This document shows, one piece after another, positions 3,327-29,882 of a DNA stretch of 64,000 nucleotides; the first letter of the stretch is position 1; each line of letters begins with the position of its first letter. The position numbers and the translations under genes were made by a program. Source of the stretch: Candidatus Woesebacteria bacterium GW2011_GWB1_33_38 (GTDB lineage: Bacteria; Patescibacteriota; Microgenomatia; UBA8517); contig LBPF01000006.1 of assembly GCA_000990005.1 (NCBI GenBank), positions 33,615 to 97,614 of the forward strand, in the 5' to 3' direction. The notes under the pieces were generated by a model. It was given only the letters and a program-made list of their open reading frames with translations. It ran no database searches and was not told the origin of the DNA.

Positions 3327-3533
3327 TTATATATCAATTTTGGCATCTTTGAGAATTGACATTGTAATACCACGACCCAAATCACTTCCTTTATGAACAG
3401 GGACACTCACAATAACTTTTTTGACTGAATGGTAAAAAATATTATGACTTCCTTCAGTTCTTGATAATCTGAATCCATCCTTCTTCAAAATTTTAATTAA
3501 CTTTCTCGCATTAAAAACTGCCATTTTAGGCAT
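3327..3533 (-). CDS. hicA: HicA-like mRNA interferase toxin
   Basis: 68 aa, KK…GF……GSH…H pattern of the HicA/YcfA family; overlaps the upstream hicB-like gene. Confidence 0.65.
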   Translation of the reverse strand: MPKMAVFNARKLIKILKKDGFRLSRTEGSHNIFYHSVKKVIVSVPVHKGSDLGRGITMSILKDAKIDI

Positions 3534-6780: not shown

Positions 6781-8271
6781 ATGCAGACATATGCTTCAAC
6801 TAAGCAAAATCAATCTTGGTTTTCGTGGTTTTTACGAGGCGTTTTAATTTTGGGGTTTTTAATTTTAGTAGGCAGGCTTGTTGAACTTCAAATAATAAAG
6901 GGTAATTTTTATAGAAACTTATCTGAAGGAAATAGAATTGAAAGAATTAAAATACCAGCTCAAAGGGGAAAGATTTTGGCTCGTGGTGGGGAAGTTTTGA
7001 CAGGATCTGATTTTTCTCATATCACGGGTTATTTAGCAGAAACTAATGAAAACGAAGTGGGTAAAATTGATCCTAATTGTATAGAAAAAGGCCCTTTTAA
7101 ATTAGGTCAGATTGTTGGTCGAGGAGGATTACAAGAAAGATATAATTGTATTTTGTCTGGCATAGATGGAGAAGAACTAATTGAAGTTAATAGTCTGGGA
7201 GAAAAAATAAGAGAGATTGGTATTAAAAAGCCCGTCACAGGAAGCGACGTAAAAACTAATATTGATTACAATTTACAAAAAACTATTGCAAAAGAAATGG
7301 AAGGAAAACTTGGATCAGTTGTGGCAACAGACAAAAAAGGGCATGTTTTGTCTTTATTTTCATCTCCAACTTTTGATCCAAATGACATACAAAAGGCACT
7401 TACCGATTCACAATTACCGCTTTTTAATAGAGCAATTGGAGGCTTGTATCACCCTGGTTCTATCTTTAAGCCTTTAGTTGCAATTGTAGCCCTTGAAGAT
7501 AAAAAGATAGATGCCGATTTTAGGTTTAACGACACAGGGGTAGTAACAGTTGAATCAATTTATGGAAACTATTCATATACTAATTGGTACTATACCCAGT
7601 ATGGTGGAATGGAGGGGGAAGTTGATGTAACCCGTGCTCTTGCCAGATCAACTGACACTTTTTTTTATACGATCGGAGAGCGTGTGGGCATTAATTTACT
7701 TGTTGATTGGATGAAAAAATTTGGGTTAACAAAATTAACGGATATTGATTTAAATGGCGAAGTTTTATCTTTAATCCCTTCACCAGACTGGAAAGAAAAA
7801 GTAAAAAAAGAAAAATGGTTTTTGGGAAATACATATCACTTTTCAATTGGTCAGGGGGATTTGGCTACGACTCCAGTTGGAATCCATAGAGCAGATTTGA
7901 CTGTTTTAAATGGCGGTAAACTTTGTAATTTGAAAATTGTTGGAGATACGACTTGCATAAATTTAACGACGAAGTCGGTTACTTTAATTAAAAATTTAAA
8001 ATTGGTAGAAGAAGGAATGAAAATGGTGTGTCAGACTGGGGGTACTGGTTATACTTTTTTTGACTGGGAAACCAAACATAATGGTCAAAATGTACTTTGT
8101 AAAACAGGTACTGCAGAAACAAATGAGGATAATAAAACTCATGCTTGGTTTATTGCATCCTTAGATGATTTAGTCTTAACTGTAATGGTGGAGAAATCGG
8201 GAGAAGGTAGTAAAGTTGCTGGACCTATCGCTAGAAGTATTTTTGATGATTATTTTAAGGTCCGACCTTGA
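6781..8271 (+). CDS. mrdA: Penicillin-binding protein 2 (class B transpeptidase)
   Basis: N-terminal transmembrane segment, SIFK (SxxK), SxN-like and KTGTAE (KTG) motifs. Confidence 0.8.
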   Translation: MQTYASTKQNQSWFSWFLRGVLILGFLILVGRLVELQIIKGNFYRNLSEGNRIERIKIPAQRGKILARGGEVLTGSDFSHITGYLAETNENEVGKIDPNCIEKGPFKLGQIVGRGGLQERYNCILSGIDGEELIEVNSLGEKIREIGIKKPVTGSDVKTNIDYNLQKTIAKEMEGKLGSVVATDKKGHVLSLFSSPTFDPNDIQKALTDSQLPLFNRAIGGLYHPGSIFKPLVAIVALEDKKIDADFRFNDTGVVTVESIYGNYSYTNWYYTQYGGMEGEVDVTRALARSTDTFFYTIGERVGINLLVDWMKKFGLTKLTDIDLNGEVLSLIPSPDWKEKVKKEKWFLGNTYHFSIGQGDLATTPVGIHRADLTVLNGGKLCNLKIVGDTTCINLTTKSVTLIKNLKLVEEGMKMVCQTGGTGYTFFDWETKHNGQNVLCKTGTAETNEDNKTHAWFIASLDDLVLTVMVEKSGEGSKVAGPIARSIFDDYFKVRP

Positions 8272-8300
8272 AAGTTAAATCAGTATAAAGGTCGGACCTT
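8257..8300. repeat. Paired 13-bp palindromes AAGGTCCGACCTT…(17 nt)…AAGGTCGGACCTT, copy 1 of 3
   Basis: Seen directly; the first arm overlaps the mrdA stop codon (…aag gtc cga cct TGA); the element ends 11 nt before the dprA ATG. Confidence 0.8.
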
Positions 8301-8311
8301 GTTAGAAAAAT

Positions 8312-8872
8312 ATGAATTTGTATATTTTGGGGAAATTAAAAAAAGAAGATAAGAGGGCGGTGGCAATTGTGGGAACTAGACTACCTACTGAAAGAGGAAA
8401 AAAATTAACAGAAGAATTTGTTAAAGAACTTGTTAAAAACGAAATAACAATTGTTTCAGGGTTGGCGCGCGGAATTGACACAATTGCGCATCTTGCAGCA
8501 CTAAATTGTGGAGGCAGAACAATTGCAGTAATCGGCTCAGGTCTTAATGTTATTTATCCTCCTGAGAATAAAAAGCTGGCAGAGGAAATTTCAAAAAATG
8601 GAGCTTTGGTATCAGGTTTTCCATATGGCACAAAACCTGAGGGTAAAAACTTTCTGGCCAGAAATCAGTTGATTGTAAAATTATCAAAAGCAGTTTTAGT
8701 TATTGAAGGTAAAGCACGATCTGGTACAATCTCCACCGCTAATCATGCAGCTAACGATGGAGTAGAGGTCTTTGCAATCCCAGGCTCTGAAGCAACTGAT
8801 TATTTAATTGAAAATGGAGCAACACCTGTACAAAAGGCATTCGAGATAGTAGATTATTTAGATACATTATGA
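8312..8872 (+). CDS. dprA: DNA-processing protein DprA (Rossmann-fold core only)
   Basis: GLARGIDTIAH…AVIGSGLNVIYPPEN…FLARNQLIV…SGTISTANHAANDGVEVFAIPGS. Confidence 0.8.
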   Translation: MNLYILGKLKKEDKRAVAIVGTRLPTERGKKLTEEFVKELVKNEITIVSGLARGIDTIAHLAALNCGGRTIAVIGSGLNVIYPPENKKLAEEISKNGALVSGFPYGTKPEGKNFLARNQLIVKLSKAVLVIEGKARSGTISTANHAANDGVEVFAIPGSEATDYLIENGATPVQKAFEIVDYLDTL

Positions 8873-10821
8873 AATTAATAATTGTTGAATCACCGACTAA
8901 AGCTTCTACATTATCCAAGTTTTTGGGTAGCGACTATGAAGTGGATTCGACTCGTGGCCACATTAAAGACCTGCCCAAGAGCAAGTTAAGTATTGATATA
9001 GAACATAACTTCAAACCTGATTATCAAGAAATAGAAAAGAAAAAGTCAGTAATTAAAGACTTGAAGTCAAAGGCAAAAAATGCCAGTGAAGTTTATATTG
9101 CGACAGACCCTGACAGAGAAGGAGAAGCAATCGCTTCACACGTGCAGCAGATATTAAGTGACAAAGATATAAAGTTAAAAGTGGAAACACATAGAATTTC
9201 ATTTCATGAAATTACTCAAAAAGCAGTTGAGGATGCAATATTCAATCCTTCCAAAGTAAATAGAAACCTTGTTGATGCACAGATTGCAAGGAGAGTTTTG
9301 GATAGACTGGTTGGTTATAAACTTTCCCCGCTTCTTTGGAAAAAAGTAAGACGTGGCTTATCAGCTGGAAGAGTGCAATCAGTTGCTGTAAGGCTTATTG
9401 TTGACCGCGAAATGGAAATAAAAGCTTTTAAACCAGAAGAGTACTGGGAAATTTTTGCAAAATTTACTAAATTTACAGCACAGTTAATTAAGCAAGAGAT
9501 ACATAATAAAACTACTGCTGATAAAATTCTTTCTGATTTAGAAAAAGCTACATATAAAGTTTCTGATGTAAAGAAAAGACAAATTACAAAACACCCTTAT
9601 CCACCTTTTACCACTTCAACACTAACACAAGCTGGATCAAGGCTTTTTGGCTGGAGCGCTAAAAAGACAATGAGTGTAGCTCAAAAATTATATGAAGAGG
9701 GTTTAATTACCTATCATAGAACTGATTCCTTAAACCTCTCGGCTGATGCTGTGAACCTTGCTCGAGGATTTATTGAAAAAGAATATGGAAAAGAATATTT
9801 ACCAGAAAAGCCACATTTCTATAAGACGCATAGTAAATCTGCACAAGAGGCGCATGAGGCCATCCGTGTAACGGATGTGAGCCGTGAATCGTCAACAGTG
9901 AACAATGAACAAGGGGAACAAAAACTTTATGATTTGATAAGAAGAAGGTTTTTAGCAAGTCAAATGAATCCTGCCGTTTACGATGAAACTACAATAAATG
10001 TGTTGGCAAGTTCGCGAGTTGTGAGTTACAAGTTAAGAGCTTCAGGACAGATAATGAAATTTGATGGTTGGAGAAAATTGTTTCCAGTCAATCCCACATC
10101 GGGAGTGGGCTTTGACTCTCCAGATGTGAATTTATTACCTGAGGTTGTAAAAGATGAATCTTTGGACAAAGAAAAGGTCTGGGCAGATCAAAAATTCACT
10201 TTAGCTCCTCCACGATATAATGAAGCTTCACTAATTAAAACACTTGAAAAACTGGGGATTGGAAGGCCTTCCACTTATGCACCAATTATTACAACAATTC
10301 AAGTTAGAAGTTATGTGGAAAAAGTTGATAAAGTATTCATTCCCACAACAATTGGTTTTGCTGTAACAGAATTTTTGGTTAAAAATTTTCCAACAGAACT
10401 AGATTTTGGTTTTACAGCGGAAATGGAGGAAGATTTGGATAGGATTGCAGAAGGAAAAATAAAATGGGAAACTGAGATGAAAAAGTTTTGGACTCCCTTT
10501 GAAAAGAAATTAAAATCTGTTGAAAAAACAGCAGAAAGGGTAAAAATAGAAACAGAAAAGTTGAACATTAAGTGTCCAGATTGTAAGGATGGGGAGCTTG
10601 TCATAAGAGTTGGAAGATTTGGAAAGTTTATCAGTTGTTCTAGATTTCCAGACTGTAAGCATACTGAAAAGTTTTTAGAAAAAGTAGGGATTAAATGTCC
10701 TGACTGTAAAGAAGGTGACATAATTGTAAAAAAGAGTAGAAAAGGAAAGTTTTATGGCTGCTCAAGATATCCTGAATGTAAATTCGCTTCTTGGAAACTG
10801 CCAAAAAAAGAGGAAAAGTAG
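8869..10821 (+). CDS. topA: DNA topoisomerase I
   Basis: MKLIIVESPTKA Toprim N-terminus; C-terminal C4 zinc-ribbon repeats (CPDCKDGELV, CPDCKEGDII). Confidence 0.9.
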   Translation: MKLIIVESPTKASTLSKFLGSDYEVDSTRGHIKDLPKSKLSIDIEHNFKPDYQEIEKKKSVIKDLKSKAKNASEVYIATDPDREGEAIASHVQQILSDKDIKLKVETHRISFHEITQKAVEDAIFNPSKVNRNLVDAQIARRVLDRLVGYKLSPLLWKKVRRGLSAGRVQSVAVRLIVDREMEIKAFKPEEYWEIFAKFTKFTAQLIKQEIHNKTTADKILSDLEKATYKVSDVKKRQITKHPYPPFTTSTLTQAGSRLFGWSAKKTMSVAQKLYEEGLITYHRTDSLNLSADAVNLARGFIEKEYGKEYLPEKPHFYKTHSKSAQEAHEAIRVTDVSRESSTVNNEQGEQKLYDLIRRRFLASQMNPAVYDETTINVLASSRVVSYKLRASGQIMKFDGWRKLFPVNPTSGVGFDSPDVNLLPEVVKDESLDKEKVWADQKFTLAPPRYNEASLIKTLEKLGIGRPSTYAPIITTIQVRSYVEKVDKVFIPTTIGFAVTEFLVKNFPTELDFGFTAEMEEDLDRIAEGKIKWETEMKKFWTPFEKKLKSVEKTAERVKIETEKLNIKCPDCKDGELVIRVGRFGKFISCSRFPDCKHTEKFLEKVGIKCPDCKEGDIIVKKSRKGKFYGCSRYPECKFASWKLPKKEEK

Positions 10822-10834
10822 TATCATTAATTTA

Positions 10835-11173
10835 ATGTTTATTGTTGAGTTTTATAAATCTCCAAATGGAAAAGAAGTTGTAAAGAAAACATATTTCGAG
10901 TATTCAGACAAACAAAGAGCTAAGATTGCAAAGTCAATGGCAAATCTTAAAGAATACGGAATAAACCAAGCCATTGCAAACTTAAGGAAGTTGTTAGGAA
11001 CGCACCTTTGGGAATATAGAATTCTTGGTAAGGACAATATTCGGATTATTTGTGTGTCTTTACCAAGTAACAGAATAATGGTTCTGCATATCTTTACCAA
11101 AAAGTCACAGAAAACTTCAACAAAAGATTTAAAAACCTCAATTGAACGGTATAAACTTGTACTTGACAAATGA
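10835..11173 (+). CDS. RelE/ParE-superfamily toxin, HigB/Gp49-like
   Basis: …LWEYRILGKDNIRIICVSLPSNRIMVLHIFTKKSQKTSTKDL… matches the Gp49/HigB-type toxin pattern; the start is moved to ATG 10835 to clear topA. Confidence 0.6.
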   Translation: MFIVEFYKSPNGKEVVKKTYFEYSDKQRAKIAKSMANLKEYGINQAIANLRKLLGTHLWEYRILGKDNIRIICVSLPSNRIMVLHIFTKKSQKTSTKDLKTSIERYKLVLDK

Positions 11174-11198
11174 TATCCGATCGAATATCATACATTTT

Positions 11199-11480
11199 AT
11201 GTTAAAAGGAACTAATTTTGATGACATCTTAAAAGAGGAGCTAAAAAATCCTAAATTTAATAAAGAATGGGATAAATTAGAGCCTGCTTATCAGGCACAA
11301 AGGATTTTGATTCAATCAAGAATCAAGGCAAAAATGTCTCAACGGCAATTGGCTAAAAAGGCAAAAACAACTCAAGCAATAATTTCACGTATTGAAAACA
11401 TGACAATAAATCCTTCAATTGGTCTTCTTCAAAAATTAGCCACAGCTTTTGGAAAAAGATTAGAGATTAATTTTAGTTAG
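11199..11480 (+). CDS. XRE-family HTH antitoxin (HigA-like)
   Basis: MSQRQLAKKAKTTQAIISRIENMTINPSIGLLQKLATAFGKRL is a Cro/C1-type HTH; it lies immediately downstream of the toxin. Confidence 0.6.
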   Translation: MLKGTNFDDILKEELKNPKFNKEWDKLEPAYQAQRILIQSRIKAKMSQRQLAKKAKTTQAIISRIENMTINPSIGLLQKLATAFGKRLEINFS

Positions 11481-11545
11481 TAAAGTCGACCTTACTAGAT
11501 TGTTTTAAATTTCTTAAATATACTCGCGTTTAACTTGCCCAAATT

Positions 11546-12232
11546 ATGAATAACTATATTTGGGATAAATTGTTTAAAAAATACGAACAAAGCGTAAAAA
11601 AAGATGAAAATGCAGATTTTGCATATGAAAGTTTAGTTAATACTTTATCCATATTAAGTTTATGTGACAACTTAGGTGTTGCCTTAGATTTAGGTTGTGG
11701 AGATGGAAGGTTTACAAAAGAACTTGAAGTAAGGTGCCAAAAAACCTTTGCAGTTGACCTATCAGATTCAATGTTAAAGCAAGCGAAAAAAGTTTGTCTT
11801 AACACAACTTTTTTAAAAGTAGATCTGGAAAATAAATTTCCAAAATTTAATACAAAGTTTGATTTAATTACCTGTAAGTTGGTGTTAATGTATCTAACAA
11901 ATATTGAAAATTTAGCTTGTGAGACATATAAGATACTTAACAAAAACGGCGCTTTAGTTGTGTCTGTAACGCACCCTATGAAATGGATGGATAAAACATC
12001 ATATCTTAAGGAGGATGTTGTCCCTGGTGAGATTGCAAATGATAAAAATCTTAAGGTGACCTTTAAATCTAGAACGATTCAAACTTATATTAATACCTTC
12101 ACAAAATATGGGTTTCATCTTGAGGTAGTTCTGGAAACTGGGGTTCCTGATTCGTTCGTGATAAAATACCCTGATTATTTAGCATTTCAAAAAAAGCCGT
12201 ACAGATTAAATTTAAAATTTGTTAAAAAATAA
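11546..12232 (+). CDS. Class I SAM-dependent methyltransferase
   Basis: Motif I LDLGCGDGRFT. Confidence 0.7.
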   Translation: MNNYIWDKLFKKYEQSVKKDENADFAYESLVNTLSILSLCDNLGVALDLGCGDGRFTKELEVRCQKTFAVDLSDSMLKQAKKVCLNTTFLKVDLENKFPKFNTKFDLITCKLVLMYLTNIENLACETYKILNKNGALVVSVTHPMKWMDKTSYLKEDVVPGEIANDKNLKVTFKSRTIQTYINTFTKYGFHLEVVLETGVPDSFVIKYPDYLAFQKKPYRLNLKFVKK

Positions 12233-12233
12233 G

Positions 12234-12329
12234 AAGCAGAGCTTGTTAGAATATCATAAGCAGAGCTTGTTAGAATATCATAAGCAGAGCTTGTTAGAAT
12301 ATCATAAGCAGAGCTTGTTAAAATATCAT
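12234..12329. repeat. Four tandem copies of the 24-bp unit AAGCAGAGCTTGTTAGAATATCAT (last copy TTAAAATATCAT) running into the ATG of the HTH-NUDIX gene
   Basis: Seen directly; this is the source of the listed artefactual 62-aa ORF 12219..12407 (QSLLEYHK x4). Confidence 0.9.
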
Positions 12330-13005
12330 GAAAGACTTTCATCCATTACAATTAAAAATACTTCAAAAATTGTTGTACTCAGATGGTTTAAGATACTCAA
12401 AGATTAAACCCACAAAAATAGAGGGTAGTAAATTTGCATTTCATTTAGATCAACTACTCAAACTTAAATTTGTTAACAAAATTGGAACTATCTATAAACT
12501 GACACTTCTTGGTAAAGAATTGGCAAACAGAATGGATTTGGGAGATAAGAAAATAGAAACTCAAGCTAAAGTTTCTGTTTTAATGGTTTGTATTAAAAAA
12601 GATAAAATACTTCTTTATACGAGATTAAAATCACCCTTCTTTGGATATCAAGGTTTTCCTACAGGGAAAGTTAAACATGGGGAAAATATATTAAAAGCAG
12701 CAAAAAGAGAATTAAAAGAAGAGACGGGTTTAATTGGTACCCCAAAACTATTTGCAGTTAGGCATTATAAAATTTATGATTTATCAAAGAATCTGTTGGA
12801 AGATAAAATCTTTTTTGCCTGCAAATTCATCGACCCTAAAGGGGTCTTAAGAAATAATCCAGAAGGCACATATAAATGGATTCATAAAAACAAAGTTTGG
12901 GACTATCTTAAAAAACCTGTAGATGAAGTCAAAGAAATTCTTGATTCTATTGAAAACAGCGAAATTACGTTTTTAGAAAAAGAATACTCTACCAGGGGAT
13001 TTTAA
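12328..13005 (+). CDS. NUDIX hydrolase with N-terminal winged-helix domain
   Basis: Nudix box GKVKHGENILKAAKRELKEETGL; an N-terminal 90 aa segment looks helix-turn-helix-like. Confidence 0.7.
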   Translation: MKDFHPLQLKILQKLLYSDGLRYSKIKPTKIEGSKFAFHLDQLLKLKFVNKIGTIYKLTLLGKELANRMDLGDKKIETQAKVSVLMVCIKKDKILLYTRLKSPFFGYQGFPTGKVKHGENILKAAKRELKEETGLIGTPKLFAVRHYKIYDLSKNLLEDKIFFACKFIDPKGVLRNNPEGTYKWIHKNKVWDYLKKPVDEVKEILDSIENSEITFLEKEYSTRGF

Positions 13006-13009
13006 TTTT

Positions 13010-13495
13010 TTATTTGTACTTTACTGTTTCAGTGGAGATAAACTCTAATTTAATTTTCGCTTTTTTAAACATGCTTTCTGATTCTTGTCCTGCATGGTAT
13101 TTATTTGCAGCTACAACTCTTAGAATGCCAGTATTAATGAGTAACATTGCACAAGTTCTACAGGGAGTCATGTTTACGTAAACTGTAGAACCTTCAAGTG
13201 AAACACCTCTTTTAGCAGCTTGGCAAATAGCATTTTGTTCCGCATGAACTGTTCTTACACAATGTTCAGTAATGGTTCCGTCCTCGTGAATTATCTTTTT
13301 TAATTGATGTCCAACTTCATCACAATGTGGAAAACCAACAGGTGAACCTGCATAGCCAGTTACTAAGATTTGTTTTTCTTTGACAAAGACACAAGAAGCA
13401 TGGCCTCTATCACAAGTTCCTCGCTTGGATACGGTTTGCATTATTTCCAAAAAGTATTTATCCCATGATGGGCGGACATTTTTCAATTTCTTCAT
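13010..13495 (-). CDS. dCMP/cytidine deaminase family (ComEB-like)
   Basis: HAEQNAI and PCRTCA zinc-binding motifs. Confidence 0.8.
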   Translation of the reverse strand: MKKLKNVRPSWDKYFLEIMQTVSKRGTCDRGHASCVFVKEKQILVTGYAGSPVGFPHCDEVGHQLKKIIHEDGTITEHCVRTVHAEQNAICQAAKRGVSLEGSTVYVNMTPCRTCAMLLINTGILRVVAANKYHAGQESESMFKKAKIKLEFISTETVKYK

Positions 13496-14061: not shown

Positions 14062-14391
14062 ATGGATTTTGATGAATACCAGAAAGAAGCAAACAAAACA
14101 GCAATTTATCCCGTACTTGGAGCTAAATTTGTATATCCTACATTAGGCTTAGCAGATGAGGCGGGTGAAGTGGTAGGTAAAATTAAAAAAGTAATGAGAG
14201 ATGATGGGGGAGTTTTAACAGAAGAAAAAAAGATTGAAATTAAAAAAGAGCTAGGCGATGTTTTGTGGTACTTAGCTCAGTTGTCTACTGACTTAGGAAT
14301 TAAGCTTTCAGAGGTAGCCAAGGCTAATGTCGAAAAACTTGCATCGAGAATGGAAAGAAATGTACTTCATGGTAGTGGGGACAACAGATAG
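14062..14391 (+). CDS. MazG-like nucleotide pyrophosphohydrolase (small all-alpha NTP-PPase)
   Basis: EVGEL-type and LGDVLWYL motifs of the MazG/HisE superfamily. Confidence 0.65.
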   Translation: MDFDEYQKEANKTAIYPVLGAKFVYPTLGLADEAGEVVGKIKKVMRDDGGVLTEEKKIEIKKELGDVLWYLAQLSTDLGIKLSEVAKANVEKLASRMERNVLHGSGDNR

Positions 14392-29611: not shown

Positions 29612-29648
29612 CACTTGACAGATTGTATGGTTATTGTATAATTATTGT

Positions 29649-29882
29649 ATGACTACAATTAATATATCTTTACCAATTCAATTAAAGTCTGATGCAGAGC
29701 TTTTAGTAGAGAACGGGCTCTATGTGTCTTTTAGTGATTTGGTACGAGATTCAATTAGAAAATTAATCTCCGATGCTAAATATGACCTTTTATATTTACG
29801 AACCAAAAGAGATTATAAGAACGGTAAGGCGACTGTGTTAAAAACACAAAAAGACATTGACGATTATTTCAAAAAACTTTAA
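29649..29882 (+). CDS. Ribbon-helix-helix antitoxin (ParD/DinJ-like)
   Basis: INISLPIQLKSDAELLVENGLYVSFSDLVRDSIRKLI matches the ParD pattern. Confidence 0.6.
   Translation: MTTINISLPIQLKSDAELLVENGLYVSFSDLVRDSIRKLISDAKYDLLYLRTKRDYKNGKATVLKTQKDIDDYFKKL

Follow-up and report, generated by a model that had tools for sequence, protein, structure and literature searches.

The gene of a SAM-dependent methyltransferase (228 amino acids, 11546–12232, plus strand; class I, Pfam Methyltransf_11, 5.6e-16) and that of a 225-residue winged-helix and NUDIX protein (12328–13005, plus strand) are separated by a tandem array of the 24-bp unit AAGCAGAGCTTGTTAGAATATCAT in the analyzed stretch of 64 kb, here called the window. 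Three perfect units, on the plus strand like the genes, start at 12234, 12258 and 12282 and occupy 12234–12305, while the fourth and last, AAGCAGAGCTTGTTAAAATATCAT (12306–12329, plus strand), carries one mismatch, a G→A change at 12321. No match to the unit was obtained in any of 100 dinucleotide-preserving shuffles. TRF placed the array at 12219–12329 (period 24, 4.6 copies, 94% matches, score 187), where it outranks every other TRF array in the window by a wide margin. The additional 0.6 copy corresponds to a degenerate unit, TTGTTAAAAAATAAGAAGCAGAGC (12219–12242, plus strand), which shares the last codons of the methyltransferase gene, TTT GTT AAA AAA TAA, including the stop codon at 12230–12232. 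It constitutes both ancestral coding sequence and the left edge of the array, and it is matched by the array-free junction of a relative (L009) discussed below. The 95-bp spacer between the two genes is made up entirely of the array. At the right end, A12328 and T12329 of the NUDIX start codon come from the last unit, while G12330 lies outside it. An earlier sequence-only reading, according to which four 24-bp repeats end in the NUDIX start, was thereby confirmed.

Every unit closes both flanking reading frames, with TAA for the upstream and TAG for the downstream gene. Across the array, the methyltransferase frame reads VKK*EAELVRIS*AELVRIS*AELVRIS*AELVKIS* and the NUDIX frame reads ...SRAC*NIISRAC*NIMKDF, so that both flanking genes are insulated. 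Internal units read ATA where the last unit reads ATG, and it is the last unit that regenerates the sequence ATGA, which provides a TGA in the methyltransferase frame. The only open frame is a repetitive ORF (12219–12407, KQSLLEYH four times), which passes the ATG out of frame. A protein-database query built from two open-frame repeat peptides gave no match at E ≤ 10. As this ORF runs across both real genes in a different frame, it is most sensibly regarded as spurious, which had been presumed from the letters.

Folding of the array RNA was no better than that of shuffled sequences (z = −1.15), and no Rfam family matched the array at a threshold as loose as E ≤ 1. The segment formed by the last unit and the start region is rich in A and U and lacks structure (−2.8 kcal/mol, z = +0.5). 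In the DNA, the unit holds an inverted repeat of only 4 bp with no real dyad symmetry beyond this stem, and a period of 24 bp is not in phase with the helix. Only five unit variants occur across all arrays described in this work (window, L004, L017–L019 and L027–L034). Three of the four kinds of unit change (G/T/A at unit position 6; a 1-nt insertion) lie in the loop of the small hairpin AAGC-AnA-GCTT, and the TTGTTAGAATATCAT part is invariant except in the last copy of the window; this loop-centred variation could be a hotspot or a constraint.

The ATG at 12328 is taken as the true start of the NUDIX gene because the family N-terminus MKxLHxxQL is conserved and the frame has a stop two codons upstream. 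The NUDIX domain (residues 81–190, E = 1.5e-12) is MutT/MTH1-like (3fk9, E = 2.9e-10), and its Nudix box is intact (G113x5E119x7R127E128LxE131E132xG134L). An AF2 model of the whole protein (pLDDT 93.5) shows residues 1–67 as three helices followed by a β-hairpin. Modelled alone (pLDDT 85.8), the N-terminal domain resembles the winged helices of IdeR, MarR, HxlR/QsrR, Sso10a and AspA with TM scores of 0.6–0.75 and rmsd values of 1.5–2.5 Å, while 39 of 46 family members match DUF7347 and 31 of 46 match Pfam HTH_45. The domain composition proposed for the downstream gene was thereby supported, with an N-terminal fold of the MarR/HxlR type in structure comparison of the predicted model. The neighbouring genes encode a dCMP deaminase, a dNMP-kinase-like P-loop protein, MazG and thymidylate kinase in the window, and a dCTP deaminase, dUTPase, ThyA or ThyX and DHFR in relatives. 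As these are genes of dNTP metabolism, the neighbourhood points to dNTP-pool housekeeping as its probable function. The closest homologs with a name belong to Candidatus Dojkabacteria, which makes the host probably a member of this CPR group, and the contigs derive from groundwater metagenomes.

Upstream of the methyltransferase gene, a Gp49(HigB-like)/HTH_3 pair of the toxin-antitoxin type (10754–11480) follows topA; it is missing from the relatives L009 and L012, where the methyltransferase gene comes directly after topA. DNA identity between the window (9067–13013) and L009 amounts to 93% for the NUDIX gene, 85% for the adjacent methyltransferase gene and only 76% for topA, and the gene order 3′ of the NUDIX gene differs as well. 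This suggests an unusual constraint on the NUDIX gene, or else recombination or transfer.

The number of units varies among assemblies that encode an identical 225-residue protein. Four units are found in the window and in three further contigs (L001, L003, L007), three units in L006, and two units in L002, L008 and L004, the first unit being a variant in L004. Compared with the window, the flanks carry no substitution over ~5.8 kb in L002 and at most 0.6% in the other contigs. Gain and loss between strains concern whole, perfect internal units, and a repeat number that changes faster than point substitutions accumulate is a signature of replication slippage. We therefore have high confidence that the array represents a real variable-number tandem repeat (VNTR), judged from these comparisons of assembled sequence. 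The sequence-only reading had offered a slippage-generated, strain-variable duplication as its second option, and this is what the cross-strain comparison revealed, all copy numbers being taken from short-read metagenome assemblies.

As a separate observation, the MazG gene of the two-unit contig L002 is shortened in frame by 57 nt (109 → 90 amino acids; window 14180–14248), the deletion falling between two 12-nt direct repeats, AAATTAAAAAAG. It is a second repeat-mediated length polymorphism in DNA that is otherwise identical.

The array is missing from other orthologous loci. In L009–L011 (96% amino acid identity) and L013–L016 (72%), the methyltransferase and NUDIX genes overlap as ATGA and there is no spacer; the junctions end in ...TTTGTTAAAAAATCATGAAAGA and ...TTTGTTAAAAAATGAAAGA, respectively. 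In L012 (83%), a single in-place duplication of the junction is present (21–22 nt, TTGTTAAAAGATAAT[T]GAAAGA / TTGTTAGAACATAATGAAAAA), which has an identity of 18/21, includes a decayed start codon and leaves a spacer of 21 nt. The methyltransferase C-terminus KFVKK* is retained in all relatives, and the window differs from an L009-type junction by exactly 96 additional nt (4 × 24). An overlap is thus, with high confidence, the probable ancestral state of the two genes.

The unit itself resembles this ancestral junction. Its 3′ 17-mer, TTGTTAGAATATCATAA, aligns with the array-free junction of L009, TTGTTAAAAAATCATGA, with three mismatches at the exact site of the array, and this is the sole match in 5.7 kb, where 0.07 would be expected by chance. 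The TTGTTAAAAAAT part of the unit, in its ancestral version, encodes the conserved methyltransferase C-terminus FVKK. For the 5′ 7–9 nt of the unit (GCAGAGC), no convincing derivation from the ancestral junction was found. We consider it moderately well supported that the unit was born at the methyltransferase/NUDIX junction and was afterwards copied elsewhere. The L009 junction may represent either the progenitor state or an array that collapsed by recombination between its first and last copies.

When JGI metagenome contigs were scanned with the unit, three were retrieved (L017, L018, L019); no reference genome was matched among the GTDB genomes. The junction between array and gene start, CTTGTTAAAATATCATGAAAGA, had no match in either collection. 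Viral contigs contained no arrays, only eight single chance 17-mers inside coding regions. At the second locus (L017, L018, L029–L034), four units end, as ...GCTTGTTAGAATATCATGAATAAG, in the ATG of a gene located downstream of bacA that encodes a secreted-type protein of 201 amino acids. These units read AAGCA[A/T]AGC..., one of them has a 1-nt insertion, and L029–L034 carry an identical set of four diversified units. At the third locus (L019, L027, L028), the units end in ...ATATCATGAAAAAAATA, which contains the ATG of a 224-residue membrane protein; both locus-3 contigs break within the array. The units at loci 2 and 3 are identical to the window unit at 23 of 24 positions and agree with it in orientation and register, and all three arrays end in ...ATATCATGA. 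With blastn, the window array matched L017–L019 at 93–98% identity over 42–104 nt.

Array-free alleles of locus 2 are available as well. In L020, L035 and L036 (≥90% amino acid identity), the start region reads TTGAAA-16-TGTATAAT-caatctta-GTG, by its sequence an ordinary, putatively leaderless promoter placed directly at the start codon; in an 84% relative it reads TGTATAAT-caacatc-ATG. The filled alleles contain 97 additional nt directly before the start codon, and this codon is ATG instead of GTG. Nothing unit-like was found at the empty locus-2 site, whereas the NUDIX junction contains such a sequence, which argues that the unit is native at the NUDIX locus and imported at locus 2. The comparison of empty and filled sites gave, at two loci, an insertion at the start codon in the orientation of the gene with ATGA regenerated. 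The locus-2 contigs and the window lineage share a sample series, and the loci lie on separate contigs. No second array was present in ~84 kb of the window genome, and the window with its ~20 kb of flanks contained neither further arrays nor homologs of the locus-2 and locus-3 genes. We are highly confident that the unit has been dispersed to other start codons, as these alignments indicate.

An SD-like 4-mer (AGGA/GGAG/GAGG) at −16 to −5 is absent from all 61 genes of the window that start with ATG. A −10 box of the form TAnnnT, often extended by TGn, ends 6–9 nt before the ATG in 26 of the 61 genes, where about 5 would be expected, and a further 21 genes have an overlap with, or almost no gap to, the gene before them. 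Based on these three counts, the host seems to do without SD sequences, to be largely leaderless and to rely otherwise on translational coupling. Our search of the literature on leaderless or SD-less translation in CPR/Patescibacteria, including Dojkabacteria, returned nothing directly relevant. Coupling by termination-reinitiation is lost beyond about 20–38 nt (PMC10666635). Since the spacer of 47–95 nt exceeds this distance, coupling of the NUDIX gene to the methyltransferase gene should be abolished, and the NUDIX gene would consequently need de novo initiation on an SD-less leader. Our confidence that the array affects NUDIX expression, including a tuning by copy number, is low. At locus 2, the insertion would appear to have converted a leaderless gene into a leadered one.

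Taken together, we favour, with a probability of roughly 60%, the explanation that the array is a young, copy-number-variable minisatellite that was born by duplication at the overlap junction, varied by slippage and was copied to at least two other start codons, similar to a MIRU. The methyltransferase and wHTH-NUDIX genes would once have overlapped by 4 nt (ATGA) at the site of the array, and the unit most likely arose by tandem duplication of this junction, because its 3′ 17 nt correspond to the last methyltransferase codons and the ATCAT(G)A start region. The array would then have grown and shrunk by replication slippage, and the homogenised unit would later have been copied, by recombination or template switch, to positions directly before the start codons of two or more other genes. 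The dispersal on which the term mobile would be based comprises three loci and few events. Such an element may be tolerated because its units stop both frames and read ATA internally, while the last unit restores ATG and ATGA. With a spacer of the observed lengths, termination-reinitiation coupling between the two genes would be abolished, and the NUDIX gene would probably be translated by SD-independent de novo initiation on a short, AU-rich and unstructured leader. The copy number would alter the length of spacer and leader and perhaps the level of expression.

The known repeats that come closest are the MIRU-VNTR loci (mycobacterial interspersed repetitive units; Supply et al., 1997), as outlined in two summaries (PMC12548453; PMC3635867). 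Common features are short tandem units with a strain-variable copy number at several loci, an intergenic position within operons in the orientation of the genes, and insertion at a start codon that restores the ATGA stop/start overlap and leaves the flanking genes intact. The present repeats are set apart by size and probably by sequence, with a unit of 24 bp compared to ~40–100 bp in MIRUs, and also by their CPR host and by three loci instead of dozens. A MIRU-type coupled mini-ORF was considered and rejected: the frame ending in the TGA of ATGA reads AELV(R/K)IS* and contains no ATG, GTG or TTG, so that, in contrast to MIRUs, no start codon is available in it. Here, moreover, a plausible birthplace can be identified at the methyltransferase/NUDIX junction, which distinguishes this family from MIRUs.

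Phase-variable repeat tracts occur near pathogen promoters, for example the heptanucleotide repeats upstream of the Haemophilus hmw genes. The array resembles these contingency tracts in being a hypermutable tandem tract between upstream signals and a start codon, with a copy number that differs among near-clonal strains. In contrast to them, its 24-bp unit is a multiple of three, non-coding and outside both coding sequences, so that it provides no frameshift switch; it is not known to cause an ON/OFF phenotype, and it occurs in a CPR bacterium of groundwater that is free-living or episymbiotic.

Both the origin of MIRU-type repeats and their targeting of start codons have been unexplained since 1997. 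The array offers a much simpler case of this type: its unit measures 24 bp, it is known from three loci, a progenitor junction can be recognised and the empty sites are clean. As the host appears to lack SD sequences and is largely leaderless, the effect of a start-codon insertion on expression and SD-less de novo initiation could be tested directly. In addition, the array provides a ready means of telling strains apart in an uncultured CPR population of groundwater. Should the repeats be nothing more than neutral products of slippage, they would form a tidy but ordinary VNTR.

A more far-reaching explanation, which we regard as possible but tentative, is that the unit belongs to a start-codon-seeking, MIRU-like family of CPR bacteria that was born at the junction, inserts between AT and G, and carries its own SD-independent start and maybe a binding site for the wHTH-NUDIX protein, which would create a small regulon. 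Such a family would convert leaderless or coupled genes into leadered ones.

Somewhat less probable, and in our opinion unlikely, is a tandem promoter cassette, in which an extended −10 element (TGtTAGAAT) in each unit would give the NUDIX gene one or more promoters of its own, and transcription would increase with copy number; from the penultimate unit it would begin at ~12307 and yield a 21-nt leader. Boxes of the form TGnTAnnnT located 6–7 nt before the ATG are indeed the typical promoters of this genome, and the final T of the box, which is critical, goes back to an A→T change in the ancestral TTGTTAAAAAAT. Identical DNA upstream of non-homologous genes would also fit the putative mobile promoters of Matus-Garcia et al. 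(2012; PMC3488235), for which near-identity of at least 80% is the criterion, a value surpassed by the blastn matches given above. However, a weight matrix trained on 23 leaderless promoters of this genome (training median 8.7 bits) assigned only 0.9 bits to the internal unit and 3.3 bits to the last unit (TGtTAAAAT). Scores as high are reached by 2.6% and 0.8% of the window positions, respectively, and are so common that a random 24-mer will often contain such a site; likewise, only 10 of the 164 TGnTAnnnT sites in the window stand before a start. The box of the last unit is situated 3 nt from the ATG, off the 6–9-nt peak, which makes a leaderless AUG impossible from it, and the gene at locus 2 already had a near-consensus promoter. 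The evidence for a promoter in each unit is therefore weak. In contrast to mobile promoters, promoter activity is doubtful here, and the shared DNA is a tandem array that reaches and includes the start codon. A scan for standard −35/−10 elements detected no pair on the plus strand of the array. Sigma-70-like matches on the minus strand (ATGATA-17-TATGAT) were rejected as being at chance level (19 found, 12.3 ± 4.1 expected).

The first option of the sequence-only reading, that the repeats are iterated operators bound by the wHTH-NUDIX protein for autoregulation, fared worse and now appears improbable. In an extended form, the protein would bind each unit and possibly also control the two other array-bearing genes as a small regulon. 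The MarR/HxlR-type winged helix of the model, the position of the array at the protein's own start codon and the confinement of unit variation to one spot, with the TTGTTAGAATATCAT part unchanged, are in line with this idea, and the presence of the unit before two other genes could be read as growth of a regulon. On the other hand, these two genes are unrelated, the orthologues with 96% and 72% identity have neither the unit nor any intergenic DNA, that with 83% identity has one diverged copy, and the wHTH domain is conserved across lineages that lack the unit. Units that are 100% identical and vary in number among near-clonal strains indicate recent slippage rather than selected sites, and neither the absence of dyad symmetry past the 4-bp stem nor the helical phasing speaks for operators. 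Differences from the array-free 96% relative are scattered over the protein, and the recognition helix is not singled out. The comparative support for operators or autoregulation is thus removed, although the protein may nevertheless bind the unit.

The suggested parallel with NrtR did not hold either. The two proteins have in common a Nudix fold fused to a winged helix-turn-helix. In NrtR, the Nudix-like domain is N-terminal and the wHTH C-terminal (PMC2330246), whereas here the order is reversed, with the wHTH at residues 1–67 and the Nudix domain at 81–190, and the Nudix box is predicted to be catalytically intact. The neighbourhood here concerns dNTP rather than NAD metabolism. A palindromic operator upstream of NAD-metabolism genes is a defining feature of the NrtR family; the present repeats, with their 4-bp inverted repeat, are not palindromic operators.

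Still less probable, and in our judgement very unlikely, is a REP-like element mobilised by a Y1 (RAYT/IS200-type) transposase acting on the ssDNA hairpin ATAAGC-AnA-GCTTGT. A gene for such a transposase (215 amino acids, PF01797; L025 6596–7306) is present in the same genome ~3 kb past the right end of the window. It scores 42 bits with the model of REP-associated tyrosine transposases, which is below the NCBIfam cutoff of 80. The unit variation (G/T/A, 1-nt insertion) in the hairpin loop and insertion always after ...AT would agree with this mechanism, as would the general likeness to REP/BIME elements, which are short intergenic repeats with a small hairpin, in a genome with a RAYT-like gene. 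However, the Y1 gene has a different and perfect palindrome of 23 nt, ACAACAAGGTGACACCTTGTTGT, on either side, the stem of the unit measures only 4–6 bp, and the units are direct repeats of a low-copy family rather than inverted REPIN pairs, abutting start codons rather than gene 3′ ends. A partial copy of ACAACAAGGTGACACCTTGTTGT lies inside the transposase gene. Since this palindrome is unlike the unit and was not found in the 64-kb window, a link between the array and RAYT/REP was rejected.

Least probable of all is an assembly artefact, i.e., arrays or copy-number differences produced by collapse or expansion of a short repeat in the de Bruijn graph: the data do consist of short-read metagenome assemblies and four contigs (L005, L019, L027, L034) terminate within arrays, but the final k-mers, given as 127 and 141 in the contig names, exceed the whole array of 96–111 bp in length, every copy number recurs in independent samples and assemblers, and locus 2 shows identical diversified units in at least six assemblies.

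Two further gene starts in the window deserve mention. At the start of dprA, the unit-like sequence CTTGTTAGAAAAATATG (8298–8314, plus strand) differs from the unit by three mismatches and shares with it the geometry TTGTTAGAA-N4-ATG; with 0.4 matches expected by chance per window, it may be a chance occurrence. It is contained in a repeated stretch at the PBP/dprA junction (8256–8314), where an 18-mer from the end of the upstream gene, AAGGTCCGACCTTGAAAG, returns after 31 nt as AAGGTCGGACCTTGTTAG, ahead of AAAAATATG with the start of dprA, which may represent another junction duplication. TATAAT-like boxes near starts are found, for example, at 3526, 6781, 14062, 26309, 30952, 33202, 49002 and 56041. 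At 29615–29651, a near-consensus promoter, TTGACA-16-TGtTATAAT, sits within a triple 11-mer (ATTGTATGgtt/ATTGTATAatt/ATTGTATGact), with an ATG (29649) 6 nt further on. This ATG lies 3′ of the TTG at 29634, the first codon of the longest ORF, and the gene may begin at the ATG rather than at the TTG.
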